Shown here one piece after another: positions 7,858-58,092 of a DNA stretch of 64,000 nt. A program made the position numbers and the translations under genes. Location: the NCBI GenBank assembly GCA_047967505.1, contig CM106538.1; one strand, given 5' to 3'. The stretch's first letter is position 1; each line of letters starts with the position of its first letter. The DNA comes from Dipteris shenzhenensis (lineage: Eukaryota). Below the pieces are notes generated by a model, which worked only from the letters and a program-made list of their open reading frames with translations, was not told where the DNA came from and searched no databases.

Positions 7858-9177
7858 AAAACTACATGATAATACATCAAGAGAGGAATGCATCATGGGG
7901 AAGACATGATACAATTTGTCAAGGACCTCTACAAAAGAGATGGGGAGAGAGGCTTAACCATGATTTCTCTATAAAAGCAGCTATTGGCATCGAAACGAGA
8001 GAGGTCTGAAGAAGCTAGCAAACGGGAAGGACCCAGACACACAAGGGCTAGTAGCTGATATGTTGACATGGGGGGAAGACAAAGACAATGCTCATCCAAC
8101 TCCTAAATGAGACTCTAGAGAAAGGTATATTCCCTTAGAATGGCAGCTTAGCAAGATTGTACCAATCCACAAGGGGGGGGGCAGCAAGGTGGTGAAAAAC
8201 TACATAACAATCATGGTGATCAGCCTAATTGCCAAATTGTATGGCACTATCATTGAGCAAAAATAAGCAAATGGGCAGATAGGTAGAGGCACAAGGAATT
8301 AGGGCACCATTCCCAACAGCGTTCCATCCAAGCACTCGACGATGGATCATTTAGTTGCCACAAGAGCGGCAATGGAGGGAGCCAAGAATAAGAAAGGGGC
8401 TGTATATTGTTGCTTTGTAGACTTAAAGAAAGCCTTCGACAAAAGCTATGGGAAAGACTGATACCATTGCCTCTTCAGGAGGGGCATGCTTTGGTCCGCT
8501 CTCACGACTCACCTACTTCCATGACCTACTCTGCAGTAGGCTCTATCTGATTGAGATGCGATGACACAAAGAGACATTACCGAGACAGATGAGAGAGCAA
8601 CAGGAGGAGACAACGCCACAAGCTATTGAGGCAGATCAAGCATAGAGGCATGCTCACATATTTCTATGCATTTGAGTCAGCTCCAGGACACAGCAGGGTG
8701 GAGGAGGAAAGAGCTGATATGAGGGCAATATGGATTAGCAGAGAGAGCCGACACGAGTGAGGGATGCAGAGACCTGACACACACGAAGAGTAGCCAAAGC
8801 ATACACAAACGAGGTTAGGCCTATCTCAACTCTCCTCAGCGAGGACCACCAGAGACAAGGCATTATTCTTGATATAGCCCATCGGATGAAGAGATCGAGG
8901 AGACCATGTCCCCGCCACAATGCGACAGCTTGACAGATGCAAATCCGGGATATTCTCGCACCAAACCGGAGAGCCACTATGGTGGCGGGTTTTGGATTCT
9001 AAGTCTCAGCTTTCAACTTCAGTTTCTATTTGAGTTTTGTCTGAGCTCTTAAGCTCTTTACCTTAGTATAGCACTCAGCAAGGGCCCTAGCGTGCCCTTT
9101 GCTTCAACCCTTCAAGGCTTGTATGAGTTATTTCTTGTTTGGTGTACATTGTCCCATAGGCCCACAAGGCCTCCTAA

Positions 9178-9226
<49 letters not shown>
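7858..9226 (+). mobile_element. Chimeric RTEX-like LINE relic (RT fragment + 3' end with (CT)n tail)
   Basis: EWQLSKIVPIHKGG and YCCFVDLKKAFD, then a jump at about 8460 to a C-terminal/3' UTR region homologous to 11820-12630. Tail at 9181-9226. Confidence 0.75.
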
Positions 9227-9228
<2 letters not shown>

Positions 9229-12200
9229 GGTGTCGAACCCATGGGACGAGTACACACATTGGATTGGACATAGTAGTATGGAATTGTAATGGCACTCTAT
9301 GGTCTCATCTGGGAGGGTTCTTGGAGACATACAATGACAAGGATATGATCTTCTACATCGAGACACATGAGAGCCTAGAGAGAGGGCTGCCCACAGTGAC
9401 AGGATGCACGTGGGAGTCTGCTCATAGGAGGGAATTGAGGAAAGATAATAGAGTAAGCGGCTCTAGAGGGGTAGCTGTCCACCACTCATACCTGGACTTC
9501 CGTATCTTTGCTACTATATCAGCCAAAGGGAGAGCGCTCCCCACACCTGCACATGTCCATATCCACTTTGATTGTGCCCTCGACCCAGTATATGTGAGCC
9601 ACTTAGCTAGGGAGCTTCTGACCTTGCTTGGAGATGACATAGACCTCGCACGCGCCTAGGATACCCTTGTCTCAGTGGTACAGGATGCTGCCATGAGATC
9701 CTTTCCCACGACCCAATCCACACACGTCCGTGATGGGAAGATGCCTCAAAACCCTTGGTTTGACGACGAGTGTAGAGAGGCAAGAGCCCACCTCACACAA
9801 GAGCAGGCCTTGGGCCATCTGACGTCATCTGAGGCACAGCGGATCTTCGGTCGATTAACATGCAGTAAGAAGCGGGCCTTACCCACACGCAAGATGGATA
9901 AGATTGCCAAATCCTTTTGAGGAGGAGACCCGACCACTAGGTGGGGATTTCTATCGGAGTGGAAGCCACATGTTCCCATCACTGACCCAGTGTATGGCAC
10001 GCATATGCATGTTCCCTTTATGATGCCCAGATGCAGACACCATCGGACATGTTGTCTATGCCCACGCCCACACCTGTCACTTGTTCACCACACAGAATGT
10101 ACGGTCTCCACTCTGTTGGCCACACAATCAGAGAGCACAGGATCATGAGGGCCTACGAAATGAACACTTTGCACATGGGCAGGATGTCTTAGCCCTGGTC
10201 CTAGCACAGATGTTCAATTAAGCTTATGCCACCACTTCCCACCTGCTAGGAGTACCACCACTATTGTGCCGATACACAAAGCCGGGGACCCTATGGATAC
10301 TAGGAACTATTGCACCCTCATGATTGGCTACACTTTGGCCAAGATCTATGGGCCGGTGTTAGAAAGGGAACTCAGCAATCACACAGAGGCTCGAGGGCAG
10401 GGCAGCGGGCCTAGGACAAGCTGGGTTCTGGAGACAGCACTCTACTCTAGATCACATCTTTACTCTGAGGGCTATCATTGAGGAGGCGAGGTCCAGACAC
10501 CAGAAAGTATACACATGTTTTGTAGACTTTTGTAAGGCATTCGAGACTATCCCACGATCCCACATGATCAAGAGACTATAGGAGATGCAAATTCTAGAGA
10601 CACTTAACTAGGGAATGATGAGCCTATATGAGTCAACCAGAGGCAAAGTTCGTGCCCTAGGTGGTCTATCGAATTGGGTTGAGAGTACAATTGGGGTGAA
10701 GCAGGGTTGCCCTCTCTCGCCGACTTTACATCAATGAGATCACTTCCTTCGTAGACCGCCTAGGAGGCGAAGGATCATTACTGACCGATCTCATGATACA
10801 AATATTGCTATATGCTGATGACATAGTCCTTATCTCATCTTTAGCAAAGGCGCTACAGAGACATTTGGAAGCCCTAAAAGTGTTCTGCAGAGAGAGAGAC
10901 CTCAAGTCAACCTTGGGAAGACCAAGGTTATGGTCTTCGACACCTCACACGCAGTGCTCCGTCGACTCTGCTTCACTTATCATGACGAACCAGTGGAGAT
11001 AGTGTAGTCCTACACATATTTGGGAGCAGTCTTCATAGGACCCCTTTTCACTATGACCCATGCAGCCCAGGCACGACCATAGTGCCCGAAAACGGCGTTT
11101 CTAGGCACCCGAAACGGTTCACCGTTTCGGCACCGTTTTCAAAAGCAAAAATGACGTTTTGGGCAGGCAGTTTTATGATTCGGAGTAAGCCCTCAACTCC
11201 ACATGAGATAGTACAAGCAGAGTTCGCCCATGACACCACTCAGGTTGATGCCATCTTCTAGACAGTCACATTCATTCATATAGTCTGGGACTTACCTCGA
11301 GGGAGACTATCGACGCTGGCCCAATAATCATCCAGACAACTAGCAGAGAGTGGAGCAGACACATGGTATGCACGTATATCCACATGGTTTGCTGGGCACG
11401 AGATCCAAATGGACGAGTTCCCCCCTTTCAGTACAGCATGGATGCACCCATGAGTCGACCCCATGAGATGAGATCAACTGTATCATACGGTTTGATCTCC
11501 TTCAGCTCCACACATCTCGGACTTGCGGGGGAGATCATGAGCTCCCCACCAAGACCCAGTTCTACAGCAACCACTTCTTGAGAGTATCGGAGGAGGGATT
11601 CATCATCAGGCCCCAGTATCTCAAGGACAGAGGAGTCTCGCATACATTGAGAATCGCCATTGGACAGATGCGGGTTTCATCCCATCAGCTGAGGATTGAG
11701 ACAGAGAGAGCAACAAGTATACCCAGAGCGCAATGGATCTGCATGCTATACACATTGGGAGTGATTGAGACAGAGGAGCATTTCTCTGTGCCTCCCCAAC
11801 CTACTATGAGATCATGGGACGATACCATTGCCTCTATCACGATGGGAGTGTCTTTGGCCCACTATCACGATTGATCCACTTCCATAACCAGGTCTGCATT
11901 GTGCTCTATCTGCTTTAATGCGCCGACACAAGGAGACTCTACTACGGCAGATCAGAGAGCAGCAGAAGGCGACCAGACCATAGGATACAGAAGATGACCA
12001 GACACAGCGGTGTGTCACAAATTTTTATGCATGAGACAACTTCAAGACACAGTGGAATGGAGGAGGAGCTAGCTGATATGCGGGAAGTATGGATTACCGA
12101 GAGAGGGATGCAAAGGCCACCTGCAATACGGAGAGCAACTAGAGCACATTCTATTGAGGTCCGGCCTATCACACCTTTCCTCAGAGGAGACCACCCGAGA

Positions 12201-12582
12201 CGAGGAGACCTCCCGAGACGAGGGGTCACTCTGAACATAGCTCAGCGGGTTCATAGATTGAGGAGACCACGCCCCCCTCCGCTACCACGCGTGAGATAGC
12301 CCGAAAACGGCAGATCCAAGACATTTTCACCGCTCACAAATGAGCCACCACAGTGTCGGGTTTTGGTTTCTGAGTCCCAACTCTCAGCCTATTCCAGATA
12401 GCATATGCTTTGTACTTGATTTTGCTCAAGCTATTGAGCCCTTTATTTTAGCATAGTGCATAGTACTCATCAAGGGTCTTAGCACACCCTTTGCCCCAAC
12501 ACATTGAGGCTTGTATGAGTTTTTCCTTTTGGTGTACTTTCTTTGTCCTGTTGGCCTGCGAGGCCCCTCGCGAACGTTAATA

Positions 12583-12630
<48 letters not shown>
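9227..12630 (+). mobile_element. RTEX-like LINE, near-complete but degenerate ORF2 (APE-RT-CCHC) with (CT)n tail
   Basis: APE start DIVVWNCNG..IFYIETH, linker QNPWFDDECREAR, RT VPIHKAGD, GVKQGCPLSP, QILLYADD, C-terminal RVSSHQLRIET..ETEEHF. Tail at 12585-12630. Confidence 0.85.
11078..11174. mobile_element. Foreign palindromic 97-bp insert, probably a hAT/MITE end fragment
   Basis: Replaces LINE sequence present in the paralog at about 30660-30855. Contains a perfect hairpin CCGAAACGGT-TC-ACCGTTTCGG (11109-11130) and several AAACGG motifs. Confidence 0.5.
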
Positions 12631-12632
<2 letters not shown>

Positions 12633-12639
12633 CCCCTCA

Positions 12640-13536
12640 CGGACTAGGGGGAGGGGGGAAAAGAGGGGGGGGGGGACCAAGAGTTCCCCATGAGTATTAG
12701 CAGATGGAGTGATTATCAGGCCCGATATTTGAAACAGACACCTCTCTCACGCACTAAGGATTTCCATCAAGCCAATGCGGATCTTGTTCCATCAGCTAAG
12801 GATCGAGGTAGGGAGAGTGATAAGCACTAGAGCTGCGGATTTGTAGGTTATGCACATTAACAGAGCTAGAGACGGAGGAGCACTTCCTATGTACGTGCCC
12901 CGCCTACTATGAATCCACTGCCAAGACTAAGCCTACATTAACCTCTATTTGATGGAGATGTAGCGACACCGAGAGAACTTATTGTAGCAGATCAAATAGC
13001 AAGCAGGATGTGACCGTGCCACAGGAGACAGCATAACGACAAGTCGCCGACTTCTATGCCTTCAAGTCGGCCTCAAGGCATAGTGGGATAGAGAGGAGGA
13101 GATAGCCAACGTAAGAGCAGCATAGACCAACGGGTAGAGACGGCATGGAGCGGTGAATCAACCACGCACAACGCAAAGGCTAACCAGAGCACACATGATA
13201 GAGGTCCAATCCATCACAACTCTACTTAGAGGAGACCATCCACGTCGAGGTGCCACTCTTGATATGGGCCCACCGGATATAGAAATCAAGGAGAACCAAG
13301 ACGGCTCAACAAACGCAGATACGAGACATCTTCGTGTCTCACCGAAGAGCCACCATGGTGCCCGGATATGTATTTGGAACACTACCTTCGCATGTCTAAG
13401 CTTTGAGAATATTAGCTTAGCACTCAGCAAGAGCCTTAGTGAGCCCTTTGCTTCAGCCCATAGTGGCTTGTATGAGTTATTCTCTTGATTGTACTTTGTC
13501 TCATAGGCCCATAAGGCCTTCCAAAGACGGTAACAC

Positions 13537-13578
<42 letters not shown>
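12640..13578 (+). mobile_element. 5'-truncated RTEX-like LINE 3' end with (CT)n tail
   Basis: Homologous to 11580-12630 (SHQLRIE, ETEEHFLCTCP, RGDHPRRG). Tail at 13539-13578. Confidence 0.85.
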
Positions 13579-13579
<1 letters not shown>

Positions 13580-13583
<4 letters not shown>

Positions 13584-14640
13584 CTGTGTGCCAACTAAGG
13601 CGAGCAGAGCATGCCAAGCGAGGATCTTCGAATTGCTTGAAAGGCACAAAAAATCCCACATGGAACCAAGCACTACTTTCCCACCACACACTACACTCAC
13701 AACATGCACATGATCTAGCACTCAAGAGTAAGCACACATTTAGTGTATCAATTTTTTCTACTTTAAGCTCTTTGTCTTAGGAGTGGCATCCCAAAGTTCC
13801 CTTGACATAGGGTGTAAAGACATACAATCTATCTGTTTGCATCCCCACCTCCTTCACAATTCATAGACACACCTCATTGTTAGTTCACGTACAGATGGAA
13901 GTGTACATGGTTTGAAAGATGTCACTCTTGGTCACTCAGACTTACAGCCCCATATCATGATGCTCAGTATGGATGAGAATGTGAGACACATGTGGGTCCA
14001 TCTCGAGAGGCCCTCCATCAGAGATGCTTACATTGCACCATGTTACTTTCCTGCTGAGACTAGATATCTATTGTATATGTGGTAAATTGAGTGGTCAAAA
14101 TCATAATAATATGTTCATGTAGTGAGGTGAACGTGGCGGGATAAGATGGGATAAAGAAGCGTGTACGTGTTCTTCCCCTCGCATGATGGGTGAGCTATGA
14201 GGTAGGAAATACATGACACAAAAGCATGATGGCGGGATAAGATGGGATAAAGAAGCGTGTTCTTCCCCTCGCATGATGGGTGAGCTGTGAGGTAGGAAAT
14301 ACATGACACAAAAGCATGAGACCTTATGACATAATCCATATACTATGGCCACCCCATGGGAGCTTTACATGTATCACTCTAATATCCTCCATCTCTACGA
14401 TCTATTGTGAATGAACAGCTCGTGGGCTGTGCACACTGCAAATGTCCAACAAATTCTGCACATGTTCAACAAATTGAGGTTATCCTACCTAGCCCATTCA
14501 TAACTCTAATCACTCATAGCATAGTCTAGGCCAAGTCTACCACGATGCCAGTCTACCTCAAAGCAAACTATCTCATAGCGCCCAAAGCAAGAACATAGAG
14601 CAACCTACAAAACACAGATCTTGGACATGTTCTTGAGGCT
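13580..14640 (-). mobile_element. Decayed L1 ORF2 C-terminal fragment (zf-RVT-like)
   Basis: Minus-strand W-rich fragments SAWFHVGFFVPFK and KILAWHALL resemble the L1 zf-RVT region; heavily decayed. Confidence 0.4.
14134..14319. repeat. Tandem duplication (96 bp + 90 bp)
   Basis: TGGCGGGATAAGATGGG...CACAAAAGCATGA occurs twice; the second copy lacks 6 nt. Confidence 0.95.
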
Positions 14641-14769: not shown

Positions 14770-15395
14770 ATCATGGCTTGGCACAAAGAGGGAATGAAGT
14801 GGATGGAATCAAGGAGTATAACAGCTGCTGATGTACCAGAAAACGCACATGAGATCAGGGAGATAGTGACGCAGAAAATGCTACAGAAACTATGGCGAAA
14901 CCCGGGGGGGAAATGCAGTTCTACAAACAGGAAATCGCCTCGAGGAAGCTACAGAATGCAGAATACCTCGGGGAAGACATATCAATATTATAAAGGCATA
15001 TTATCTACAAAATCAAAACTAGTTCACATGATCTCAAGGTGGAGAGGGGTAGGTGGCCAAGACCCAAGATCCCCAGAAAAGAAAGGACTTCAAAATATGC
15101 CCCACAGGGGAGGTAGAAAATGAGCAGCATGTACTCCTAAGATGCAGTACGGACATATCAAAGAAGGTCATGGGGTAAGCAGAGATAATCTGACAAATCT
15201 GCTAGAGCAGCCAGCTAAAAATCTAGGGAGCTACCAACAACATACTAAAACTAACACACAAGCTAGCCCAACAAGTACTCACTACGTAAGAAGTATGTAA
15301 TATTTCGTCATTGGATGTAAGGGATCACTATTAGTTGATAGTGATCAACAGTCCTGAAGGGTCTCACGAGGACTGTAATACAATCATATCATATT

Positions 15396-15436
<41 letters not shown>
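14770..15436 (+). mobile_element. 3' end of a second, divergent RTEX-like LINE family with (CT)n tail
   Basis: KIKTSSHDLKVERGRW..IPRKERT..VENEQHVLLRC (decayed CCHC region), a GTCCT..AGGAC hairpin, tail at 15402-15436. Confidence 0.7.
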
Positions 15437-15441
<5 letters not shown>

Positions 15442-15541
15442 AAAAGAAGGGAGACACTTGTATTGTGATTTTCATGGGTCCCATGGGTCGGTTTCTCGGC
15501 CCCCAGAGGACGGTAATACATTCTTCTTCTTCTTCTTCTCT
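15437..15541 (+). mobile_element. Approximately 100-bp LINE/SINE 3' terminus with (TTC)n tail
   Basis: Same stem-loop (15478-15511) plus GGTAATACA, then (TTC)6 at 15521-15538. Confidence 0.7.
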
Positions 15542-17849
15542 CCCCTTTTCTGGTGAAGATTTCTCGAGCAACGGTCCCCTTCATCCCTCACAGACACTCA
15601 GGTTTGGTATACGCACACTATATGACATTCTACATCAGTCCGACAGGATCGTGGGACCACGGATCACATTCTCACGCTCAAGTGTATCACTGAGGAGGCA
15701 AGGGCACGGAAGCAGAGGGTCTATTGCTGCTTTGTAGATTTCTGCAAAGCCTTTGATACAGTACCGAGAGCCCGCCTCATCAGACATCTGCAGGAGTGGG
15801 GTTATGACCAGGAGATTGTTTGGGTTGTCATGGCACTTTACTCATGTAGAGTTCGGACAGGAGCTGGATGGACTGAGGATATTATGAGTACTATTGGCGT
15901 CAAACAAGGGTGTCCTCTTTCACAGAAACTGTTTAGCCTCTCCATCAATGAGCTTGAGACATTTACGCAGACACTAGGGAGGGTTTGGATGCTCTCTCGC
16001 TAGCGCCTTGATTCAGATTTTATTGTATGAAAATGATGTGGTACTCCTATCTTCCTCTGCAGAGGGTCTCCAGAGATGCTTAGATGCACTACAGTCATTT
16101 TGTGATTCGCATACTTTGAAGGTCAATATTGGTAAGACCAAGGTCATGATCTTCAATACATCTCGGGCAGCCATGCATAAAGAGCAGTTCACCTTCGTAG
16201 GAATACCGGTTGAGATTGTCTCGTCTTACACATACTTAAGGGTTCTTTTTTTTCCCCCTATTTTTATGAGACCAGCGATGCAGGCCGTCTGAGTAGAGGA
16301 TATGCTTCGGTGGCCAAGCTAGAGAGGCAATGGTTCCACTCACACTACCAGGACCTAGGCCTCCTGTTTGACTCCTTCGTCCTACCAACAAGGATGTATG
16401 GCAGCCCTTGTTGGGGGACGGATCTCTCAGATGCAGAGTGGGCTCGTGTGGAGCGCCTCTAGGTTATTATGCTATCATGGATGATTCGTAGTAAGCCGTC
16501 GGTTCCTCACCAGATCATCCAGGCTGAGTTTGGGTCATCTCACTGCACCTTGATGCAGCATTCCAAATCATCACTTATCTATACGAGGACTGCACTTCTA
16601 AACGTCACAAACTACCATGGCTACCATTATCGTCCTCTATGGCCCTAGCAGCTGCAAGTGATAAGAGATACTGGTATGCACACACAAGCAGGTGGTTCAA
16701 GCGACTAGGGCTCCACATGGATAGACTTCCTTCCTTCCAGTACAGCATTGACATGCCATTTCTCCCACTCAAGTATCACGAGGTCAACAAGGTCGTACGT
16801 GAGGATCTTCTACAGCTACACACATTTCGGACCTGGTTGGAACCGAGTGAGCTCTCAATGAAGCTCAGCTTATACAGAGATCATTGCCTACGCGTTTCAA
16901 AGAAGGGCTTTATTGACTCTCCAAGATATATGTGGATTCACCTACCCCATTCATTGAGGATCTCTATTGGGCAGTTCCGAGTCTCTTCACATAGAGTCCA
17001 CATTGATGGTGGAAGGGCAGAGATATTACCCAAGGAGAGGCGCATATGCACCTTGTGTCACCTACAGAGATCAAGTCAAAGGAGCATTTCATTTACCAAT
17101 GCCCAATGTACTATGAGGTTCGAGGGTGCTTTAATTGTCTCTTTAGAGATAGCTCCGGGCTGTTATCCCGCTTCCCCACTTTTTTGGACAAGAGATGCTT
17201 CGCCGAATTCCTCTCTTTTTTGGACCAGAGATGCTTGGCTGCCTTCATTCACGAGGCAGTCAAGCACCGAGAGCGCCTACTTAGATCACAGTCTTAGAAA
17301 TGAAGAGGGAATGAATAACTCAATCCTCCACCCAAGATCTCTCCAACTCTCACACACTCAACTCAGATAGATGACCACAGATGCAACAGAAACATACTCA
17401 GAAATAACAGCAAGTATAGATGAAGAGAGAGAGTATATTCATCCACCGGATGGTAGGCAGAAAATGGCTCCAAGAGAGCAGTACAAAACACTGCAGGGTG
17501 CTGGAGAAAACTGAGGAACTCTCTCTCACAAACTGACCCAGATCTGAGTGCTGAACACTGCCTTGGAGAAGGCTTTCTGTAATGCACTGGATGCTGGGCT
17601 GAATGGAGAAGTGGGCCTTTTATAGGCACTGCCCAGGCCCCTTCAGATGACTGACCAGCAGGGTCGGTACCCTGTCTGGTGGCCGACCATATGGGCCCCA
17701 TTAAACTGACCAGGGTTGGCCCTGGTTGGGCCGACTTGGCCTGCCACAGGCCCCTATATAAGGGTGCCCTGGGCAGCCAGTCTGCGCTGCTGCAGGAGCC
17801 TCCATGTGAGGCCTAAAGCCCCCTTTTACCTGCTGTTGCAGGCTGCGAC

Positions 17850-20800: not shown

Positions 20801-23800
20801 CCGTCTGACTATGCTTATACGGTCAGGATGGCGGACGGAAGTGCAACTGAAGTATGGGACCAGAGGGTTACCCAATTGGAACTTCGAATTCAGGACTATG
20901 TTGAGAAGCTGGACTTTGAATTGACCAGGCTAGCTCACGCAGATATAGCCCTAGGCATGGCTTGGCATTTCTAAAAAAATCCAGCCATTGATTGGAAAAA
21001 GCATATTTACCAGTTCAAGATGAACGGGGTAGAATATGTTTTGCGAGGTGAAAAGGATTTACCTCGAGGACCATTGATTTCAGCCATGGAAATTCGGAAG
21101 ACTCCGAAAGAGTTTCTGTGTCTGTATATAGCATCAGTAGAGTCGATTGATGATGCGTCGACTAGCACTGAGGCTACCCAAGATGGGGAAATGGCCGAGT
21201 TGGCTAAAGAGATATCGGAGAAGTTCTCTGATTGTTTTAGGGATGAGTTACCTTATGGGTTACCTCCAGAGCGGAATGTTCAACATAAAATTGAGCTTAT
21301 CCCAGGGGCAGAACCTGTAAATAGACCTCCCTATAGATTAAGCTTTACAGAAGAAGCTGAGGTGCGAAGACAACTAGAAGAATACCTCAAGCTAGGGCAG
21401 ATTCAACCCAGTTTTTCACCTTTTGCTTCGCCAGTGATATTAAAGAGGAAGAAAGATGATACTTTTCGTCTCTGTATAGATTACAAAGCATTGAATAATA
21501 TCACTATTAAGCACAGGTATCCGATGGCTCGAATCGATGATTTGCCAGATGCATTACATGGGGCCATAATTTTCAGTAAGATAGATCTTAAGTGTGGCTA
21601 CCATCAGATCCGCATTAGAGCCGAGGATGTGCATAAAACCGCTTTTCGAAGCAGGTTTGGTCATTATGAGTTTTTGGTAATGCCCTTTGGACTTACCAAT
21701 GCTCAGTAATACTTTATTGACGATATTCTAGTATTCAATAAAAGTATTACTGAGCATCGTGAACACTTAAGAATAGTGTTCAGTATTTTGAGAAAAGCCA
21801 GTCTTTATGTAAATAAGAAGAAAACTATACTGTGTATGGTTAGACTTGAATACTTAGGATTCATAATTACTCCAGAGGGGGTAGAAATGGATCCAAAGAA
21901 AGTGGCTGCGATACTGACTTGGCCAATCCCTCAGAGTCTGACCGCTTTGCGATCATTCTTGGAATTTATCCAATTTTATCGAAGGCATATCAAAGGATAT
22001 TCCGAAATAGTATCGCCATTGACTGATCTGACCTCAGATAAAGTACCTTTTATATGGGGACAGAATCAACAAGAAAGTTTTAACACCATAAAACAAGCTG
22101 TGGTCATAGGACCAGTGTTAAAAATAGTTGATCCCCAGAAACCGTTGTTCTTGGAAACCGATGAGCAGTTCTCCTCCAAGAGGGAAGGCCAGTAGCCTTT
22201 GAAAGCAAGAAGCTTTCTCCCTCTCAAATGAATTGGCCAACTCATGACTTAGAGTTGTATGCTGTTATCCATGCTTTGAAAACATGGCGACATTATTTGT
22301 ATGGATCAGAGTTGTATGTGGATGTTGATCATGATACTCTGAAACATTTTTGTAAACAACCTGACTTGAGAGGCCGCCAAGCTAGGTGGGCAGAACTCAT
22401 GCAGGAGTCTAATTTGACGATTCGGTACCGAAGAGGGAAGGATAATAAGGTTGCTGATGCGTTGTCACGCATTATGCATAATATGAGTTTCACGGTGTTA
22501 GAGAGTGCTCTAATGGCCGAGATTAGAGAAACTCAAAAGATGGACGAGTTTGTATAAAGTCTATGGCCTAAGGCTCATGTGTTAAAACCCGGGGAAAACG
22601 AAAAGGATGACCTGGCATCCAGAAAAGGCCAAACTTATGCAAGATATGCCATAAGAGATGGTATGCTGAAAAGAAATGGCAAGGTAGTAGTACCTAATCA
22701 GAATGATCTCAGGCAGAGAGTCATTCGACAGTGCCATGATAGCCCGTGTGCAGGACATCCAGGAGTTGAGAAGACATATGATCTCGTGAAGCGAGATTTC
22801 TTTTGGCCAAAGATGAAAAAGCATATTCATGAATATGTGACACGTTGTTTTTCGTGTCAGGTAAGTAAGGCCGAGCGGGTGAAGCCACCCGGACTTTTAC
22901 AGCCCTTTGAGATACCACTAAGTAAGTGGGAGAGCATTTCCATGGACTTTATTGTAGGTCTGCCTACGACACAAGGTGGATATGATTCTATCCTTGTGGT
23001 GGTTGATCGTCTTACCAAGATGGCTCACTTCATTCCAACTAAAAAATCTGTTAGTGCCCCGCAAGTGGCGGATTTGTTTATTAGACATATATTTTGTCTG
23101 CATGGATTACCCAGATCCATAGTGTCAGACAGAGATGTCAAATTTACCGGTCATTTTTGGACTGCGGTATTTGAGACACTAAGGACTGAGTTGGGAATGA
23201 GTAGTGGGGATCATCTAGAAACGGATGGTCAAACAGAAAGAATCAACCAGATTTTAGAGGATATGCTTAGAGCATATGTGTCATTGAGGCAACATACATG
23301 GGACAAGTGGTTGCCATTGTTGGAGTTTGCCTACAATGATAGAAAACATTCCTCTACAGGGTTCAGTCCGTTTGAGCTGAACTATGGTTATAGACCAGCA
23401 AATCCAACTATAGTTGGAGTACCTCAAAAAGTGCCTAGTGCCGCGAACTTTGTGGTTCAGATGCGGGAGATGCTAGCACTTGCGAGAGCTAACATCCGCC
23501 AAGCTATGGATAGAGCTAAGGTGTATGCGGATGAGAACCGATCCACTAGAGAATTTAAGGAAGGAGAAAAAGTTTTTCTCAGAGTTCCTTCGCACTCTCA
23601 AGTCTTTGACTGCAGGAGAGTGTGCTAAGTTATCACGTCGATATTGTGGGCCATGATTAATTCTAAAAAGAATAGGCAAGGTAGCCTACAAATTAGAATT
23701 ATCACCGGGGTGTAAGGTGCACCCAGTGTTTCATGTTTCTCGTTTAAAGAAATTTTTGCATACTGGTGACTCACTAATCGAAGGTGTGGTTTTGTTTCAC

Positions 23801-24418
23801 GAGATAGAGGATAATGCAAGACGCAAACCGACAAGAATCCTGGACCGAGGAACAATGCAAGTGCGCAATCCGAAGATACCCACGGTGTTGGTTACATGGC
23901 ATGATTTACCTCTATCGGAAGCTACCTGGGAGTCCGTATACCAGTTACGGAGAGTGTTCCCAAATTTCATCATCGAGGACGCTGATGCTTGAAGAGGAAG
24001 AAATGTTATGCTCTAGCCGAGATAGCATGACCTCGGAAAGATCGGTGGGCATTTTCCCTTAGATGACCGACTTCTGTAATATTTTATGTGCGTAAATAAA
24101 ATGGTCAAGGGAAGTAACTGCCAAGGTCCTGGGTGAGGGTGTATTGGCATCGACTAGGTGGTTCTGAGTACTAAGGCCTAGGTGCACCTAAATGTGTAAT
24201 AATGCCAAGGGGCAAATGTTTTAATTGTGCCCCAAGAGAGGGGTAAATGGTGTACCAAGTTAAAGGTCTAAAATGATGACATGTGGCAGAGGGAACCATC
24301 TAGGGAGTTGTGGGCTTGTGGATAGGCATAAGGATTAAAAAAAGTTACGTATCTTGTGTGAGCATGCGATCCATGAGATTGGCTCGAAAACCAGAGAGAT
24401 TAGAAATTGTTCGTTTCA
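17850..24418 (+). mobile_element. Full-length degenerate chromovirus (Ty3/gypsy) nested in the C1 LTR
   Basis: LTRs 17850-18310 and 24004-24418 (the 3' copy lacks 45 bp). PBS-iMet 18313-18324, PPT before 24004, TSD GCGAC/GCAAC. Order gag, protease (LIDSASTHN), RT, RNase H, integrase (HHCC, SMDFI), chromodomain (VLVTWHDLPLSEATWE). Confidence 0.95.
18427..18627 (+). pseudogene. Rhodanese-like short ORF in the gypsy 5' leader (possible captured host fragment)
   Basis: VLVVDARSLSSYSAGHIRN matches the rhodanese/CH2 N-terminal motif (hhhDxR..xY..GHI). Confidence 0.5.
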
Positions 24419-27400
24419 GCAACCAGCCTGTGTGCTGGTCGCCTATATCTGCCATGCTATCCTCCCTCTGGTTCTGGCCTGAGTCTCTCTCGCAGCCCTC
24501 CTACCTCTCAGTGCCCCTTGTCCCCTCAAATCGGGGGCTCACAGGTGGGCACAGTGAGAATCTAACACCCCCCCTCAATGTCACAAGTGTGGGCCAATCC
24601 CCATACGTCTGATGAAGTGCTCCATCTGTTCTCAAGGGAGTGCCTTCATGAAGAGGTCGGACAAGTTATCGGCGATCGAGTTGTACATGAGCTCGATCAC
24701 GTCGTCAATGATGAGCTCTCGAACAAAGTAGTAATGAACTTCGATGTGCTTGGTCCGCGCATGGTACATTGGATTCTTGGCAATGGCTTTGCAACTCTGA
24801 TTGTCACACATCAGCACTATTGCATCCTCCTAACACACGTCCATGTCTTCCAGAATCCATCTCAACCACAGTGTCTCACAAGCTGCTGTACACGAGGCTT
24901 TATACTCTGCCTCTGTAGATCAAAGGGCCACTGTGGGTTGCTTCTTACTCAGCCAAGAAATGGCACCAGATGCAAGTAAGAAGCAATACCCTATTGTTGA
25001 TCTTGTGGTGTCAGCATCACCCGTCCAATCACTGTCACAGAACCTGCCTAGTTCGATGCCTTTGGTATAGGTGATCGATCCCGTAGGTGCAAGTACCCTT
25101 TAGATACATTACCACCCGTAAACCTACATCCCAATGACTCTTCCTGGGAGATGCAGAGAACTGGCATAATGGCCCAACTACATAACAAATATCAGGTCAA
25201 GTATTGGTAAGGTAAAGCAAGCTTCCTACCAATCGTCGGTACAAAGGAGTATCGACCGGCTGAGATGTGTCATGAACACTTAGCTTGAGCCCGACCTCCA
25301 TGGGAGTTACTGCTGTCCTGCTATCCTCCATCTGAAATCTCTTCAGAAGTTCTCTACAATATTTCTCCTATGAAATGAAGATCCTATCTTTGGCCTACTT
25401 TACTTCTATCCCAAGGAAGTAGTGTAATAACCCAAGGTCAGTCATCTCAAACTCAGACATGCGTAGCTCCTTGACCTGGGAAATCTTCTTGACATGGTCA
25501 CCTTTCAAGATAAGATCATCAACATAGAGGACGAGTACCAATCGCAACCCCTTCTCAATGAACAAGTAGAGGTTTGCCTCAGAAGGACTCCGACTTAGCC
25601 CTATCTTCTTAAAGAATACATCTATCCTTTGGTACCAAGCTCTAGGGACCTGTTTCAGCCCGTATAACACCTTCTTCAACCTGCAGACCTTTAATGGGGA
25701 CCCTGGATCTTGAAAGCCCTGTGGCTGCTCGACGTACATCTCCTCCTCCAGGGTTCCATTAAGGAATGCGGACTTCACGTCCATTTGAAAAATAGGCCAA
25801 TGGAATTGGGCTGCAAGGGCAATCACTGTCCGGATAGTAACCATGCGAGCTGTGGGAGCAAAAGTTTCATCAAAATCCATGCCTTCAGTCTGAGCAAAAC
25901 CTTTGACCACTAACCTTGCTTTGTACTTATCCAAGCTGCCGTCTAATTTGTATATAAGTTTGTATACCCACTTAGTGCTGATGACTTTCCGTCGCAGGGG
26001 CCTGGCCACTAAGTCCCAAGTATTGTTCTTCAGGATAGCATCCATCTCTGCCTGCATGGCAGCCTACCATTCTAGACTGTCCTTCACCTCCTCGAAGGTC
26101 CTTGGCTCTTCAAGCTGAGCCACCAACGCAAAGTTCACGGATGGGGTCTTCTTAAGACGTTGGGACCGACGCAATCCGAAACTGCTACTCTCACGTATAT
26201 CGGTGACCCGAGAGTCTTCCAATGTTCATAGGTACCATTGGGGCAACCTCTTCTGCTTCTCAGTGAAAGGAGGAATTGGAACTACTGCTGAAACATCCTG
26301 CTCTTCCTCAGTACCTTGTAGAACATCAGCTTCGATTTCGCCACCTCTTGGATGGTCAACCTGCGGCAGGGTCAGTTCGGGGGTTGAACAATCTCCTCCT
26401 ACTCAATCTGAGGCTCCTCCTGGGGTGCAGGTTTCTTTTCCTCGAAGATGACATCCCGACTGATAACAATCTGCTTCTTTACTAGGTCAAAGAGTCGATA
26501 GGCCTTGGATTCTTCGCTATACCCAACAAAGATACATTTTCTGCTCCGGGAATCAAGCTTGGTCCTATCTTCCTTATGCACATGCACCCATGCGTTAGAA
26601 CCAAAAATGCGAAGATGAGTGATGGAGGGCTTCTTACCATAAAATGCCTCATATGGAGTCTTGTTCTTGACGGCCTTCGTCATGGTCCTATTGAGGATGT
26701 GTACTGCTATATTTACAGCTTCACTCCAATAGGCTTTAGAAAGGTTCCTCCCTCGTAACATAGCAAGCCCTGTCTCCGTGGTGGTTCTGTGCTTTCTCTC
26801 GGCTACCCTGTTCTGCTCAGATGTATGTGCTGTGGTGAGTTGTCGCTTGATCCCATGCTTGCGACAAAATGTGTTGAACTCATTGGAAGTGAATTCTCCC
26901 CCCCTGTCTGTACGGAACATCTTTACATTCTCCCCTGTCTCCTTTTCAACTATGGCCTTCTAGTCCTTGAATTTCTCGAAAGCCTGTGACTTCTTAGCCA
27001 AGCAATACACCCACATCATTCTACTGAATGCAAATCAATTCCATGAGCTAACGTTTGTTTATTTCTTGGTGCAGTGTAGTTATTTGTACCTGGAGCCTAC
27101 CCATGATGCTATAGACATTGGACCACAAATGTCGGCATGAACCAACTCAAGTCGTTTGCTGGCCCGAAACGAGGCCTCGTGTGCGAACTTGTCCCTGTGC
27201 TGCTTGCCTTCTAGACAAGCCCAACAGACACCATCCTTCCCTGTAATGGGTGGAAGTCCATCCACCATCTTCGACTTTGACATTTCAGCCAAGGTTCCAT
27301 AGCTGACGTGACCGAAGCGCTCATGCCAAAGTTTGGACTTTCCGTTGTCTTCATGAACCAACATTGCACTGAGGCAGTACAGTCCGTTTTCTTCGTCTCC

Positions 27401-30154
27401 TTGGGTCACCATCTATCCATTGGCCTTGGATGTCATGGTGACCTTGCCATCCTCAAAGAGAACTGACATCTTGTTCTTGTCCATCTAACTTACAGACAGT
27501 AAGTTCTTGCAAAGGTTGGGTACATAAAGTACTCCAGATATATCCTTCTCCTCACCCGCGGTCGTAATGAAAGGAATGCCACCAATGCCCTTCACAGGAC
27601 ATGTCCGACTATCCCCAACAGAAACTTTGGAATCCAGGTATGTACTTTGCATGGTTTTGAACCAAGTCTTTCTGTTAGACATGTGCTTTGAAGCTCCGCT
27701 ATCAACATACCAACCCTCTTTTCCCTCACTGACTGCATACGCTGAGCAATGTTCACTATCGTTCTTAGGCTCTTCTTTGATCCTGGCTTCTCTCTTCCTC
27801 TTCTGATCCGCCTTCTTCTTTTGGCATTCTTTGGCGGAGTGGCCAAGCTTTTCACAATAAAAGCACTTCATTTTCTTCTTTCGGTCAGCGTCCTCCAACT
27901 TCTTGAACTCCTTTGGCTTGCCTTTTCCAGGCTTGTCTTTGGCCACTAATGCCTTCTCGTCACTTTGCGTAAAGAGTTTCTCTCGAGCCTCCTCCTGAAG
28001 CAGGAGTGGGCCAAGCTCCTCAAAGGTGATTGGCTTAGTCCGTTGACCCGCAGTGACCGTAGTCACAAAACTTTTGAAACTCCGTTGCAACTTGTGGAGT
28101 GTGAGCAACGCCAATTGGCTCAAGTCCACCTTTTGACCAACCGTTGTGAGCTGGTCCCGCACGATGTTTACCTTTGTCAGATGGTCATGCACACTATCAC
28201 CCTTGTTCATATCAAGACTATAAAGTTGATGCTGAAGAGTAACGATACGGGCTGTATTGTCGGTTTCATACAGCTCCTTCAGTATGGCCCACGCCTCTGA
28301 AGACCTCTCTGCCAACTGGATGTGAGGGATCACAGCATCTGCTGTCGTGCCGATTAGCATTGCTAAGGCTTGAGCATCCCTCTCTTCCCATGCACTGAGT
28401 TCATCCGCATCTGCTTCAAATAGAACCTCACCTCTTTTGTCCACAATGTCCTCCGGCTTCTCCTCGGTCCCAATCACCATCTTCCACAGCTTCTGTGCCA
28501 ACAGATGGCTTCAGATCTTGACTTTCCAGATTGGATAGTTCGTCCCATCGAGCTTTCCAGCTTCACCAAAATTGGGAATGAATGAAGAAGGAAGATGACT
28601 GGAGAAGGAGGAAGGACGAGCAGTGGGTGTAGAGGCTTCTGAACGCTGATCCATCTCGGTGAATAGCAAACTGAAAAACTGAAGCAAAAAAGATGTACTG
28701 ACCTCCCGTGCTAGCCTGAGCTGAAAACAGAATCGCCTTTCTGCCAAGGGACTGTGTGATTTGTGTAGAAGTTGGAAGAGTTGGCCATGGAGTGCACAGA
28801 CTTCATGGGCTAGATGCAAATCTCTTTGTTAGTATCTGGGACCATTGGACCAACAACAGATATCATCCCTTTAGACCATCTTTTGGAGGATGGCCAGTGA
28901 GTATTATCAACCTCAGTGTGGTTACAAACCACCAAGCATGAGAAAATGCATGGGTCACACACTAAACGAGCAAGCTAAGAATAAAGGGGTCTACATTTAT
29001 TAGCACTGGCTCATTAGTGTCAGTGGAATTGGAAGGCATTTGGACGTGTTTGGACCAAGTATTGTAAAATCTATGTATTATTTTGATTTTTTGGAAATAC
29101 CAAACTGGAGTCTCTTTTTGGCTCTGATACCATGTTGGAAATGAAGAGGGAATGAATCACTCAATCCTCCTCCCAAGATCTCTCCAACTCTCACACACTC
29201 AACTCAGATAGATGACCACAGATGCAACAGATACATACTCAGAAATAACAGCAAGATTAGATGGAGAGAGAAAGTATATTCATCCACCGGATGGTGGGCA
29301 GAAAATGGCTCCAAGAGAGCAGTACAAAACACAGCAGGGTGCTGGAGAAAACTGATGAACTCTCTCTCACAAACTGACCCAGATCTGAGTGCTTAACACT
29401 GCCTTGGAGAAGGCTTTCTGTAATGCACTGGATGCTGGGAATGGAGAAGTGGGCTTTTTATAGGCACTGCCCAGGCCCCTTCAGATGACCGACCAGTAGG
29501 GTCAGTACCCTGTCTGGTGGCCGACCATATGGGCCCCATTAAACTGACCAGGGTTGGCCCTTGTCACTGGCCCTGGTTGGGTCGACTTGGCCTGCCACAG
29601 GCCCCTATATAAGGGTGCCCTGGGCAGCCAGTCTGCGCTACTGCAGGAGCCTCCATGTGAGGCCTAAAGCCCCCTTTTACCTGCTGTTGCAGGCTGCGAT
29701 CCGCCCGTGTGCTGGTCGCCAATATCTACCATGCTATCCTCCCTCTGGTTCTGGCCTGACTCTCTCTCCCAGCCCTCCTACCTCTCACTGCCCCTTGTCC
29801 CCTCAAATCGGGGGCTCACAGGTGGGCACAGTGAGAATCTAACATACAGAGACAGGAGCAGAGCCCTCTCGTAGACTCTTCTCAGACTATGATCACTGAG
29901 TTTTCCATCCGGGCCATACCAACTCTCACCCCACGGGCCTTCGGCACGATCGTGACCCAAAGCCAGTGACGCGACAAATCCGACAGAGGACAAATCCATA
30001 GATTACACTTGGAGACATCCCCTCCTTGTTCAGACTTGAAGCGCGACCGACAAGGGTCACCATAGCCCTTGTCAGATGCAGAGTCATGGCCAAGATACCG
30101 CACTGGATAGCGTCCACAGCCAACCGGCAGCATTCCATCTCTGACTTCATGCTA

Positions 30155-32335
30155 CCTCTCCCCATCATCCTAGAGATCATGATTCGGGGGTTCATGAGTC
30201 TATATGAGTCTGTCAGAGGGAGGATACGTGCCCCAAGAGGCATGTCAAACTGGGTTGAGAGCACTATCGGAGTAAAACAAGGCCGCCCCCTACTGCCTAC
30301 CCTTTTCGGGCTCTATATTGATGAGATCACTTCTTTTGTCGATAGCCTGGGTGGAGAGGGCTCGCTTCTGGCTGACCTGATGGTGCAAGTATTGTTGTAC
30401 GCCGATGACATAGCCCTCATATCTTCCTCAACAGAGGGACTGCAGAAACATCTAGAGGCTCTGGAGATGTTCTGCACACAGAGAGATTTGACTGTTAACC
30501 TTGGCATCAACATAGCTTCACATACCATAACGAGCAGTGTCCCATCAACATAGCTTCACATACCATAACGAGCCTGTGGAGATAGTGCAATCTTACACAT
30601 ATTTGGGGGTAGTGTTCACCGGACCAGGTTTCACGATGATCCATGAAGGTACGGCACGACTCACACGAGGACGGGGCGGCCCGACTAGAGAGGCGATGCT
30701 TCCAGGCACACTTCCAAGACCCTCTGACAAAGGGTTGGCTTTTTGACACACTGGTGAGACCGATTGCCATGTATGCAGCACCCTTCTGGGGGAGTGATAT
30801 TTCAGCGACAGAGTTGAGGAGATTTGAGAGGCTACAAGTGACTATGGGATCCACGATGATTCGGAGTAAACCCTCAATCCCCCACCAGATTATATAGGCA
30901 CAGTTCGCCATGACCCCTCTCCAAGTTGATGCCATCTTTCAGATAGTGACGTTCCTCCACAGAGTCTGAGCCTTACCCCTGTGGAGATTACCGAGGCTAG
31001 CATTAGAGTCCTCCAGGCGACTAGCAGAGAGCGGTGTTGATATGGCATGGTATGCACGGATATCCACGTGGTTTGGTAGTCACGGCATTCAGATGGATAG
31101 ACTTCCCCCTTTTCAGTAGTCTGGATGCACCACCCGAGATGATCCCACGAGATGAGATCAACCGTATCATTCGGTTGGACCTCCTCCAGCAGCTCCATAC
31201 ATCTAGGACTTGGGGGGGAGAGGAGTTCTCCACCAAGATCCAATTCTACCATGACCACTTCCTGAGGGTCTCAGAGCACGATCTTGTCATCAGACCTTAG
31301 TATCTCGAGGACACGAGAGTCTCACATGCACTGAGGGTCGCCATCGGTCAGTCTCATCACATCAGCTACGGATTGAGGTTGGGAGAGCTGTAGGCATACC
31401 AAGAGAGAAAAGGACTTGCACACTACGCCAAATGGAGGAGATCGAGACAGAGGAGCATTTTCTATGTGTCTGCCCAATCTATTATGAGATACGAGGACGA
31501 TACCATTGCCTCTTTCAGGAGAGGCATGGCTTTGGTCCACTTACACGGCTGATCCATTTTCACGATCAGGTCTGCGTTGGGATCTCCCTGATTGAGATGC
31601 GTCGAAGGAGAGACACATTGATGCAATAGATTTGAGAGCAACAGAGACTGATGCCACAGGTCACAGAATTTTTTTACAGACTTCTATGCATCTACGTCAA
31701 CTGCCAATGAGTCTGAGGGAGAGGAGCTTGAGGAGATGAGAGCCAGACGTGATAATGCATTGAAGATTAGAGCGGGGGGCCTCCCTAAAGGATGCTTCAA
31801 AGATGATGACTCTTTCACTGAGACTTTAGCACATGTCAAAGCAGCCATGCCTAATATTGAATGGAAGGTTGATGATGATGATGATGATGACGAGGCAACT
31901 AATATCCGGCACTCCAAAGGACATGCTATTCTTACACTTAAGTCACGAGATTTACGGATCAAGCTTCTTCAACAATCTTACAAGTTGAAAGGGACCAAGC
32001 TATGGATAGCTGAGGAACTTACACGAGCTCAATTGAAGAACAAGGCAATGGAATTACCTAAAGTCAGGGCTGCTAGGAAGGGTGGAAAATAGGCAGTTTA
32101 TCGTGAAGGCATAGCACTAATCAAAGAGTTTAAATCCAAACCAAAAGACTCTCAGTCTTAAACTGATGTATGGCTGATTACTTTTTCAGACTATGATGTA
32201 GGTATTCTAAAAAATTGGGGTTGCTTTTGCACTCCCTGGGAGCTGCCATGTGCCCTCCCTAAAGCAAATGTACTAGATGGTTTTTTGCTGTCCCATAGAC
32301 CTGTTGGTCTCCCGTGGACATTAATGGACTTTCTT

Positions 32336-32396
<61 letters not shown>

Positions 32397-32520
32397 GACT
32401 GAGACGCACGGCACCCCTTGACGGGCACCAACGTCCCATCACCGGCTATGCACCAGCCAAGGGGACATGACATACGGAGGATTCCGCTCTGCTCCAGTCC
32501 CTTTCTTTTCATTGTTACAT
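30155..32520 (+). mobile_element. 5'-truncated RTEX-like LINE (RT-CCHC), interrupted at 31751-32392
   Basis: GVKQGRPLLPTLFGLYIDE, QVLLYADD, IETEEHFLCVCPIYYEIRGRYH. The C-terminal extension resumes after 32392 (RRLRRT..QRPIT). Internal 31-bp duplication at about 30505-30573. Confidence 0.85.
31751..32392 (+). mobile_element. ORF1-only non-autonomous retroposon (5'-truncated) with LINE-type 3' stem-loop and (CT)n tail
   Basis: KIRAGGLP..HAILTLKS..KLKGTKLWIAEELT..ARKGGK*AVYREG..(TAA 32159-61) resembles a LINE ORF1 RRM-CTD. About 130 nt later come the shared stem-loop (32290-32319) and the tail. No APE or RT in between. Confidence 0.65.
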
Positions 32521-33619
32521 CCAGATCTATTTGATTATGTATGATCAGACTTAGGATTCAGCACGGGTGATGATGCTTGTTAGAGTAGCTCCACCCTTAC
32601 TGTGATTTGTATCAGGTTTTCTTTCAGTCTCATAGACCCATCGGTCTTCCATGACTCTAATAAAATTTATTTCTTTCTTTTCTTTCTCAAACAAGGCATT
32701 GACCAAATGGAAGGAATGGAAATGAGCATGGATTAAAAAGCATATTTGAAGAAAAGAAGACAAGAACAAAAGGATGCAAGTACGGCATGCCAAGTTGCAT
32801 TGGAGGAATGTTAAGACCAAGTCAAAATTCAAATGAGAATGGTTTGGAAGGCTAAGCTAAAAAGACTCTCAGCAACAAACGTAATCCTCAAACAAGAAAT
32901 GAAAGGTATCTAAGCACAAGAACGTAACAAAATTGGAACTCGTATGTCAAATAAGTCCGTGAAGTCAAAGCTTAAGTATGCAACTGAGAGGAACGCTATA
33001 CCTACAATGCAAGAGGGAAGGTGGTGGGAAATTTTTCCTCTCCGTAGAAAGGGAAATTGAGAGGACCCCGAGCAATTAAACAAAGGCACATAAAAAACAA
33101 CAAGAGGTTGTCCTTTCTCACGCAAGAAAAGTCAAAGGAGATGCAACCAAAAGTAGGCACTCAAGCCAAAGAGGCCTCCTTCTAGGTTGCAACAAAAAAA
33201 GGCGTTACTCAGCACCATGTGTGATACTATCTAGGAATAGGGCCAACCAACTTCAAAAGCAAGAGTATATAGGTTAGAGGGGCCATGAATAGCACCTAAC
33301 CTAAGGAGACAACTATCCCTTTTGTATCTCAGTGGTTGAGGGAAGTAGGCAAATGACAAATTTCAGTCATCTATTTCCAAACCATTAAGAGTAGACAAGC
33401 AGCCCATAGGAGGCCCTTCACTGATTTTCCTAATTTATCCATGTGCATAAGGCTAGGCAATAGCTTAAGAAGAAGATTTCTCACAAAGACTGAGAAGTCT
33501 CATGTGAGGTCTTGAGTTTTAGATGCATTCCTAGAGGCCAGTACAGTATCTAGGATGCCAAATTGGGACAGACATCATAGGTAGCAGCAGGTCCTAAGAG
33601 AGTTTGCTATAATCTTTTG

Positions 33620-34634: not shown

Positions 34635-34673
<39 letters not shown>

Positions 34674-55037: not shown

Positions 55038-55168
55038 CTGATAAGAGATCGTTAGAGGAAGAGGGGAAACAGAGTAACGTGTGCCATCAGACGCTGTCAA
55101 ATTCTAGATGAAATGGCCTCTGAAGGAAGGAAAAATGCTCCGATCTGCACCTGAGCTAACACAATTAC

Positions 55169-55457
55169 CTTGCGATTGGCCCCTTTGCCGGCCGCAGCTC
55201 CTTCAGAGGTGGAGCTTCCATCGATATGGGAAGGAGGCACGAACTCTTTAGCCAAAGGGTTGAGCTTTGACAGAAGATCTTCTAATTCACGCATGCTGTC
55301 ACGATTATACAGCTTCTGTCCGTCCAGGGAAGATGCAGAGCTCCCATCGCTCGCAATTTCACGATGCGCAACGCCATTGGGTCGAGCGTGCGGCAATGGG
55401 GGCTGATTTGGCTCAGATTGAGGCTCCTGTCCTGAGTCAAATCGCTGCTTCTGCTGC

Positions 55458-55490
<33 letters not shown>

Positions 55491-58050: not shown

Positions 58051-58092
<42 letters not shown>

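Follow-up and report, generated by a model that had tools for sequence, protein, structure and literature searches.

An ORF1-coding insert with a LINE-type 3' hairpin and pyrimidine tail in the fern Dipteris shenzhenensis: a candidate ORF1-only retroposon

Results

We analysed a window of 64,000 nucleotides (nt) from Dipteris shenzhenensis (contig CM106538.1 of assembly GCA_047967505.1), and all coordinates given here are positions in that window. Retroelements crowd it, with copia, Ty3/gypsy and long interspersed nuclear element (LINE) domains found throughout when all 143 stop-to-stop open reading frames (ORFs) of at least 90 amino acids (aa) were compared with Pfam. Our focus is an insert at 31744-32393, which carries the 3' part of a LINE-type ORF1, a hairpin and a pyrimidine-rich tail, and which appears to sit inside an older LINE copy. 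The insert copy itself is ORF1-only, having no ORF2 from the ORF1 stop codon to the tail. Its parts, and those of the flanking host LINE, are as follows.

30167..31743 (+): 5' part of the host LINE, itself 5'-truncated; ORF2 from the reverse transcriptase (RT) through the C-terminal region, Cys/His motif included
31744..32393 (+): the insert, read as a retro-copy; 650 nt with partial ORF1, untranslated region (UTR), hairpin and tail
31744..31753 (+): 5' junction zone of the insert; the exact base lies somewhere within 31742-31757
31754..32161 (+): 3' part of ORF1; RNA recognition motif (RRM) and C-terminal domain (CTD), 135 codons, with TAG at 32090-32092 and TAA at 32159-32161
32162..32289 (+): 3' UTR of about 125 nt, without significant similarity to LINE copies (nhmmer)
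32290..32319 (+): two-tier 3' hairpin; outer stem GUCC/GGAC, inner stem AGACC/GGUCU, loop UGUU
32320..32393 (+): linker and microsatellite tail; (TTTC)3 at 32330-32341 running into (TC)27 at 32340-32393
32394..32690 (+): 3' remainder of the host LINE, with its own hairpin at 32627-32655 and a TTTC-rich tail at 32665-32688

The ORF1 part of the insert belongs to a sizeable protein family. When five full-length relatives were searched against the whole window with tblastn, they matched solely at 31739/31757-32158, with homology beginning at 31739-31757 depending on the query. Intact full-length relatives measure 216-269 aa and add a basic N-terminus and a helix of about 85 residues; this coiled-coil N-terminal half is missing from the window ORF through 5' truncation. 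The remaining part is well preserved, keeping 18 of the 18 residues that are invariant across seven relatives. Its single in-frame stop in 135 codons, TAG at 32090-32092, sits at a Trp of the relatives (GKW). The family comprises 397 cluster representatives at E ≤ 1e-3, 80 of them at ≤ 1e-10 and 24 at ≤ 1e-30, with named members from Adiantum capillus-veneris and A. nelumboides and more distant ones from Riccia and Marchantia. Across the ORFs studied here, named relatives come from the ferns A. capillus-veneris, A. nelumboides and Ceratopteris richardii. The ORF1 family shows transposon-like habits, including several paralogs in one Adiantum genome and frameshifted copies (P0004).

Three gene models combine this ORF1 type with other sequences. 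In A. nelumboides P0104, a LINE apurinic/apyrimidinic endonuclease (APE) and pieces of ORF2 precede a full ORF1-like part, A. nelumboides P0028 joins the N-terminal half of ORF1 to two dsRBD domains, and P0072 fuses the ORF1 type with a copia gag. All three are probably annotation chimeras over nested transposons. Look-alikes in the ESM Atlas (scores of 0.90-0.92) were eukaryotic clusters and one set with a Baculo_FP_2nd domain, which we treat as a lead only.

The likely nature of the protein emerged from its predicted fold. An AlphaFold model of the window ORF (135 residues, built on a 65-sequence alignment) reached a pLDDT of 90.6 and a pTM of 0.75, and shows an RRM of beta-alpha-beta-beta-alpha-beta order, after which come a helix and two strands that form a beta-hairpin. 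Among 500 Foldseek matches in the PDB, ranks 1-10 were all human L1 ORF1p (2yko, 2ykp, 2ykq and 2ldy), with E-values of 1e-4 to 3.6e-3 over 137-147 columns that span both domains. The query-normalized TM-score (TMq) was 0.53-0.62 for nine trimer chains and 0.37 for 2ldy. Matches ranked 11 or lower were other RNA-binding domains, mostly over about 100 columns or fewer. The model of a full-length relative, P0003, consists of a helix at residues 7-91, the RRM and the CTD, and its Foldseek ranks 1-5, 7, 8, 10 and 11 were L1 ORF1p over 147-182 columns.

Human L1 ORF1p is thus the best structural match of both the window ORF and its full-length relative, with the domains in equal order, whereas sequence identity is 12-18% with no sequence-level match, and the TM-score of 0.53-0.62 for the RRM and CTD model is moderate. 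Pfam and PDB sequence searches with the window ORF, a nine-sequence profile or 67 relatives returned no family and no structure, and nothing beyond coiled-coil noise. The coiled coil of the full-length relatives is seen in the helix of P0003 and in coiled-coil matches of the profile. According to these models, the window ORF is an L1-ORF1p-like RRM plus CTD, recognized by fold and not by Pfam. The full-length relative is modelled as a coiled coil, an RRM and a CTD, the layout by which PMC5203782 defines Type II (L1-like) ORF1p.

Downstream of the ORF1 stop codon, 178 nt separate the TAA from the (TC)n run. Pfam found no APE or RT (RVT, Exo_endo_phos) in the insert's ORFs of at least 90 aa, and ORF2 proteins gave no tblastn match between 31680 and 32393. 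Two candidate remnants of LINE sequence in the UTR were rejected. A MAFFT alignment had placed 32228-32260 against the LINE 3' UTR, but nhmmer does not recover this match. A possible ORF2 N-terminus (WxCxxxxW against WNCNG..W) is attributable to chance, with E-values of 0.05-0.12 even in a 196-nt database.

The insert's 3' end is of a kind found repeatedly in the window. Six family 3' ends have hairpins at 9150, 12544, 13497, 15477, 32289 and 32626, and in these the two-tier hairpin precedes a (TC)n, (TTC)n or TTTC-rich tail by a few to about 30 nt. Aligned together, the six have 96.2% of 53 cells paired, with compensatory change in 3 of 9 pairs. In 500 shuffles, neither the observed pairing nor the observed covariation score was reached, and controls slid along the alignment gave 19-47% pairing. 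Covariation among six related 3' ends is supportive of the hairpin, short of proof. A hidden Markov model (HMM) of five LINE 3' ends, with the insert left out, matched 32283-32325 at E 6.8e-4 (nhmmer), its sole match below 0.01 outside the training sequences (the next had E 0.39).

An earlier note on this DNA, made from its letters alone, had described the insert as an RRM-CTD-like ORF1 C-terminus with one TGG>TAG-type stop, about 130 nt of UTR unrelated to the ORF2-bearing copies, and a stem-loop and tail shared with those copies, with neither APE nor RT. This description holds up well: the fold agrees with it, the TAG replaces a conserved Trp, the UTR is close to the length proposed and shows no significant LINE similarity, the hairpin covaries among the 3' ends, and the domain and tblastn searches found no ORF2 part. 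The note's interpretation, a non-autonomous family mobilised in trans by an RTEX-like RT, is partly supported: the L1-ORF1p-like fold, the shared 3' end, the lack of ORF2 in this copy and the large family of intact ORF1 relatives speak for it.

The LINE family with which the insert shares its 3' end is represented in the window by several copies besides the host. The following are the other members needed for the comparison.

9227..12630 (+): longest ORF2-bearing LINE copy; 3404 nt, ending in the hairpin and (TC)23
8126..9226 (+): internally deleted LINE copy; hairpin at 9150, (TC)n tail
12733..13583 (+): LINE 3' fragment; hairpin at 13497, (CT)n tail
15437..15545 (+): LINE 3' end of about 100 nt; hairpin of the family type, (TTC)n tail; included in the hairpin alignment

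The relatives of copy 9227-12630 found with blastn and tblastx are 8126-9226, 12733-13583, about 15560-17350 and 30167-31743. Outside the window, fern ORF2 homologs are about 1213-1217 aa long and have an APE, an RT and a C-terminal Cys/His motif. The RT of a fern homolog matches human L1 ORF2p at E 8e-17 and R2 at E 1.5e-24. Because it scores no better against human L1 ORF2p than against R2, the putative partner LINE, an APE-type element, clearly falls outside the L1 clade. Its short-repeat tail and the one copy that starts at the ORF2 start would suit an RTEX-like label as in the earlier note, but its ORF2 is long, at about 1250 aa with a C-terminal Cys/His motif, and the ORF2 contigs measure 5.2-5.6 kb. 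Within this family, the subfamily of the host copy is the likeliest partner of the insert, because both have an A-U variant of one inner-stem pair (host inner stem at 32634-32647, AGACC/GGUCU) and both have TTTC-type tails.

The 5' end of copy 9227 deserves separate attention. Its first base follows the (TC)n tail of copy 8126-9226 without a gap. The Trp codon of WNCNG lies 52 nt downstream of this start, and the Met position of the fern ORF2 homolog P0164 (tblastn) 7 nt downstream. The earlier note was right that the copy starts just before the APE without an ORF1. An internal deletion has removed about 180 APE residues from this copy. The contigs of the three closest long ORF2 relatives measure 5626, 5249 and 5227 nt, of which an ORF2 of about 3.75 kb plus UTR leaves 1.3-1.9 kb spare.

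These data bear on the idea, raised as a speculation in the earlier note, that the LINE is split into two co-dependent components: ORF2-only elements with their own start codon and no ORF1, and ORF1-only retroposons of about 1 kb with the same 3' end, which would share one RT while ORF1p is supplied in trans from the separate ORF1-only RNAs. The only copy that reaches the 5' region, 9227, starts 7 nt upstream of the ORF2 Met position, where random truncation would rarely end; A. nelumboides P0104 begins M-A-T-W-N-C-N-G; and close ORF1 relatives were found on short contigs only. Nevertheless, the idea draws on one 5' end, from a copy that also has an internal APE deletion, and the 1.3-1.9 kb beyond ORF2 and UTR on the three ORF2 contigs would leave room for an ORF1. 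Gene models of the liverwort Riccia link both ORFs, the ORF2 there being only distantly related to the window LINE. Moreover, single-ORF LINEs such as RTE work without ORF1p, as described in PMC3905857, so an ORF2-only element would imply no dependence. We regard a two-component LINE as very unlikely.

Several arrangements of this LINE family stand apart from the insert. Three copies lie head to tail in a single orientation at 8126-13583, and another LINE fragment begins just after the (TC)n and (TTC)n tails at 15402-15545. The abutting copies suggest LINE insertion into or beside existing pyrimidine microsatellite tails. Two LINE-like 3' ends stand back to back at 15300-15545, one of them with a different hairpin and a (TC)n tail at 15402-15435 (nhmmer E 0.39). 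At 13882-14067, some 300 nt beyond the tail at 13583, there is an isolated APE fragment of the family that corresponds to residues 30-127 in fern ORF2 homologs. We rejected it as a second ORF2 5' end, and it supplies no further 5' end.

The borders of the insert were judged from the LINE sequences on either side. The 5' part of the host is identified by its blastn and tblastx similarity to 9227-12630, by Pfam RVT_1 in 30002-30550 and by tblastn with the fern ORF2 proteins P0161 and P0163. With an HMM of three other LINE copies, nhmmer matched the host at 31316-31743 (E 4e-59), and the similarity stops at 31743. Beyond the insert, 32394-32690 aligns collinearly with three LINE 3' regions (MAFFT), 32394-32527 being too diverged to score with nhmmer, and the comparison of the post-insert part with the ORF2 C-terminus gave a marginal tblastn match (E 0.011 in a 307-nt database). 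In LINE coordinates, the two flanks of the insert lie in collinear order with almost no gap between them. The best reading of these alignments is that the insert is nested in an older LINE copy. The earlier note had claimed that the insert splits a LINE copy whose frame resumes after the tail. The split agrees with the HMM match that stops at 31743, whereas the resumed frame was not recovered, the sequence after the tail having collinear homology only (E 0.17). A stretch at 31765-31781 that MAFFT aligned as LINE-like was rejected, since it encodes the conserved LKIRxGGLP start of the RRM.

The same junction could be explained as a chimera, in which the 5' part of the host LINE, the ORF1 part and the tail form a single insertion produced by a template switch from ORF1 to LINE RNA beside an unrelated short LINE 3' fragment, or as the retro-copied mRNA of a host (domesticated) gene. 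The lack of significance of the post-insert LINE fragment when taken alone is compatible with this, as are the open LINE frame that continues into the ORF1 frame (31652-32089) and the order of parts in A. nelumboides P0104, which also has ORF2 pieces and then an ORF1-like part. However, the LINE parts that flank the insert are collinear and almost contiguous, and an open junction is expected one time in three by chance. A host mRNA would not end in a LINE-type hairpin and (TC)n tail, and the ORF1 family behaves like a transposon, with paralogs, the frameshifted P0004 and the chimeric P0072 and P0028. We consider a chimera or captured gene highly improbable.

Taken together, we read 31744-32393 as a 5'-truncated cDNA copy of a retroposon that encodes ORF1 but no ORF2 and is mobilised in trans via a common 3' end, and we assign this reading a probability of roughly 60%. 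Beyond the insert copy itself, we infer both the trans-mobilisation and the existence of a family whose members are normally ORF1-only, as opposed to one such copy. Under this model, a short RNA would encode the ORF1 protein alone, with its coiled coil, RRM and CTD, and no endonuclease or RT gene. The last 100 nt or so of this RNA would consist of the two-tier hairpin and a pyrimidine microsatellite tail, like the 3' ends of the APE-type, non-L1 LINE, of which the window has at least six. The LINE's ORF2 protein would recognize the hairpin and tail on the ORF1-only RNA, as in stringent-type trans-mobilisation, and would then prime on the target and copy the RNA by target-primed reverse transcription. 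For stringent-type pairs, the shared LINE 3' structure is thought to be the recognition target of the RT, as described in PMC3472496. The present copy would have inserted into the 3' region of ORF2 in an older LINE copy, with synthesis stopping at the start of the RRM. Because the ORF is retained and well conserved, the ORF1 protein may be of use to the element, for instance by coating the element's RNA in the manner of L1 ORF1p.

The sizes of contigs carrying related ORF1 sequences bear on whether the unit is short. All 17 of the looked-up non-chromosomal contigs with near-full-length close ORF1 relatives are 961-2003 nt long, and 7 of the 17 are 961-1059 nt, for ORFs of 650-800 nt. As sequence evidence, these contigs weakly favour a short unit.

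A number of results weigh against a trans-mobilised ORF1-only family. The statistically supported LINE similarity within the insert amounts to about 43 nt, and only one copy with the ORF1-UTR-hairpin-tail layout was seen within the scope of the 64-kb window. The nesting rests on collinearity because the post-insert part of the LINE is not significant on its own (nhmmer E 0.17 over 32528-32656, collinear). A candidate target duplication of 10-11 nt is also not significant, with 102 of 2000 shuffles scoring as high. The short ORF1 contigs could be transcripts or fragmented genomic assemblies, and a more distant ORF1 relative, P0184, lies on a 4889-nt contig. Pfam Transposase_22 matched neither the window ORF nor 9 aligned members (E ≤ 10), nor any of 67 relatives (E ≤ 1e-3).

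Four Riccia sorocarpa models (P0108, P0112, P0119 and P0147) add to these points, as they have this ORF1 type followed by APE/ORF2. The ORF2 part of P0112 is collinear with the fern ORF2 P0164 over 353 columns at 23% identity (E 7e-19). If the Riccia models are real, linked ORF1+ORF2 LINEs of this group may exist and would be likely ancestors of an ORF2-less derivative; the window copy could then be a deletion product of one. In tblastn searches of the window, the Riccia ORF1+APE models gave no LINE match, which is uninformative because copy 9227 is without most of its APE.

A rival explanation is a one-off deletion, in which a bicistronic ORF1+ORF2 LINE of this group lost its ORF2 at this locus only, through a genomic deletion that followed the insertion or an internal jump of the RT in the course of it, and no ORF1-only family exists. 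Such an event would fit the four Riccia models with ORF1 followed by APE, the collinearity of P0112 with P0164, the 1.3-1.9 kb beyond ORF2 and UTR on three ORF2 contigs and the single copy of the layout seen. However, it requires a loss that reaches from just past the ORF1 stop codon to about 45-110 nt before the tail, and the UTR has no detectable remnant of an ORF2 start. The UTR is also unrelated to the LINE 3' UTR, more of which a simple internal deletion would retain, and all 17 close full-length ORF1 contigs are at most 2.0 kb long. We judge a one-off deletion to be unlikely.

Other elements in the window

Besides the (TC)n-tailed family, the window contains a second LINE type at 61036-64000, with a CCHC zinc-knuckle ORF1 at 61036-61407, an APE at 61591-61944 and an RT from 63497 up to the window's end. 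At the DNA level this LINE shows no similarity to the (TC)n-tailed family. A chromodomain-bearing Ty3/gypsy element is also present, together with several elements or fragments of copia type (gag, protease, integrase and RVT_2), some of them seemingly nested or tandem. The Ty3/gypsy and copia loci are as follows.

19847-23989
25398-28510 (-)
43265-51276 (-)
23-1042
4499-6140 (-)

One of the few non-transposon signals in the window is an open frame of 268 aa at 55100-55903 (-), which carries a PAM2 motif (E 2.3e-6) and may belong to a host gene. At about 14100-14300, downstream of the LINE cluster, a unit of about 95 nt is directly duplicated in tandem. Additional (TC)n/(GA)n runs at 34640-34671 and 58053-58088 (-) have no LINE-type hairpin upstream and are probably plain microsatellites or the tails of other elements. 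No Rfam family was matched within the window.

Discussion

According to published descriptions, non-LTR (long terminal repeat) elements that are ORF1-only or ORF2-less are already known from mammals (HAL1), flies (HeT-A) and slime moulds (TRE5-A.2). The insert is not HAL1 proper, because its partner is not L1 and its tail is not poly(A). HAL1 elements end in poly(A), with relaxed recognition. They are L1-derived, whereas the partner RT of the insert is not L1-like, its 3' end is a specific hairpin with (TC)n and its host is a fern; in addition, Pfam Transposase_22 does not match the ORF family of the insert. The likeness lies in coding capacity: HAL1 is described in PMC5753468 as a non-autonomous LINE derivative that encodes ORF1p alone and relies on a partner ORF2p, and the insert also codes solely for an ORF1; coiled coil, RRM and CTD make up the ORF1p of HAL1 as well as that of the insert's family.

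Similar parallels and differences apply to the other two systems. HeT-A, which accompanies TART and TAHRE at Drosophila telomeres, is likewise a non-LTR element; it carries gag/ORF1 but lacks pol, and needs RT in trans according to PMC5537684. In contrast to the interstitial, microsatellite-tailed insert, it is telomere-specific and has a very long 3' UTR, poly(A) and another type of Gag. TRE5-A.2 of Dictyostelium discoideum lacks ORF2 and is mobilised in trans by the ORF2p of the autonomous element TRE5-A.1, which PMC5633606 reports as experimentally shown. The insert resembles it as an ORF2-less variant, with trans-mobilisation experimental for TRE5-A.2 and inferred for the insert. TRE5-A.2 differs in being a plain deletion variant of its partner that targets tRNA genes, whereas the insert demonstrably shares only about 45 nt of the 3' end with its partner.

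A further parallel comes from short interspersed nuclear elements (SINEs). In the pairing of ZmSINE2/3 with LINE1-1_ZM described in PMC3472496, a non-autonomous element has just the terminal structure of the 3' end in common with the LINE. SINEs do not code for protein and are transcribed by RNA polymerase III, whereas the element behind the insert has a protein-coding gene about 230-265 codons long. In open-access text, word searches found no fern or plant ORF1-only LINE, with Repbase and the subscription literature outside their scope.

The ORF1 family also bears on how such proteins are distributed. In a survey of L1 ORF1p (PMC5203782), plants are listed with Type I variants and the combination of coiled coil, RRM and CTD is described as typical of vertebrate L1. 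Judging from our models, a Type II-like ORF1p has many relatives, the named ones coming from ferns and liverworts. Since Pfam does not recognize this ORF1 family, its members are annotated as hypothetical proteins. For annotation, this means that Adiantum and Riccia genes of this type are transposon ORF1s and not host genes. If the family is confirmed, the trans-mobilised element proposed here would be a land-plant ORF1-only non-LTR retroposon paired with a non-L1 LINE via a 3' hairpin, not poly(A), and would combine traits of HAL1-type half-LINEs with those of tailed SINEs.

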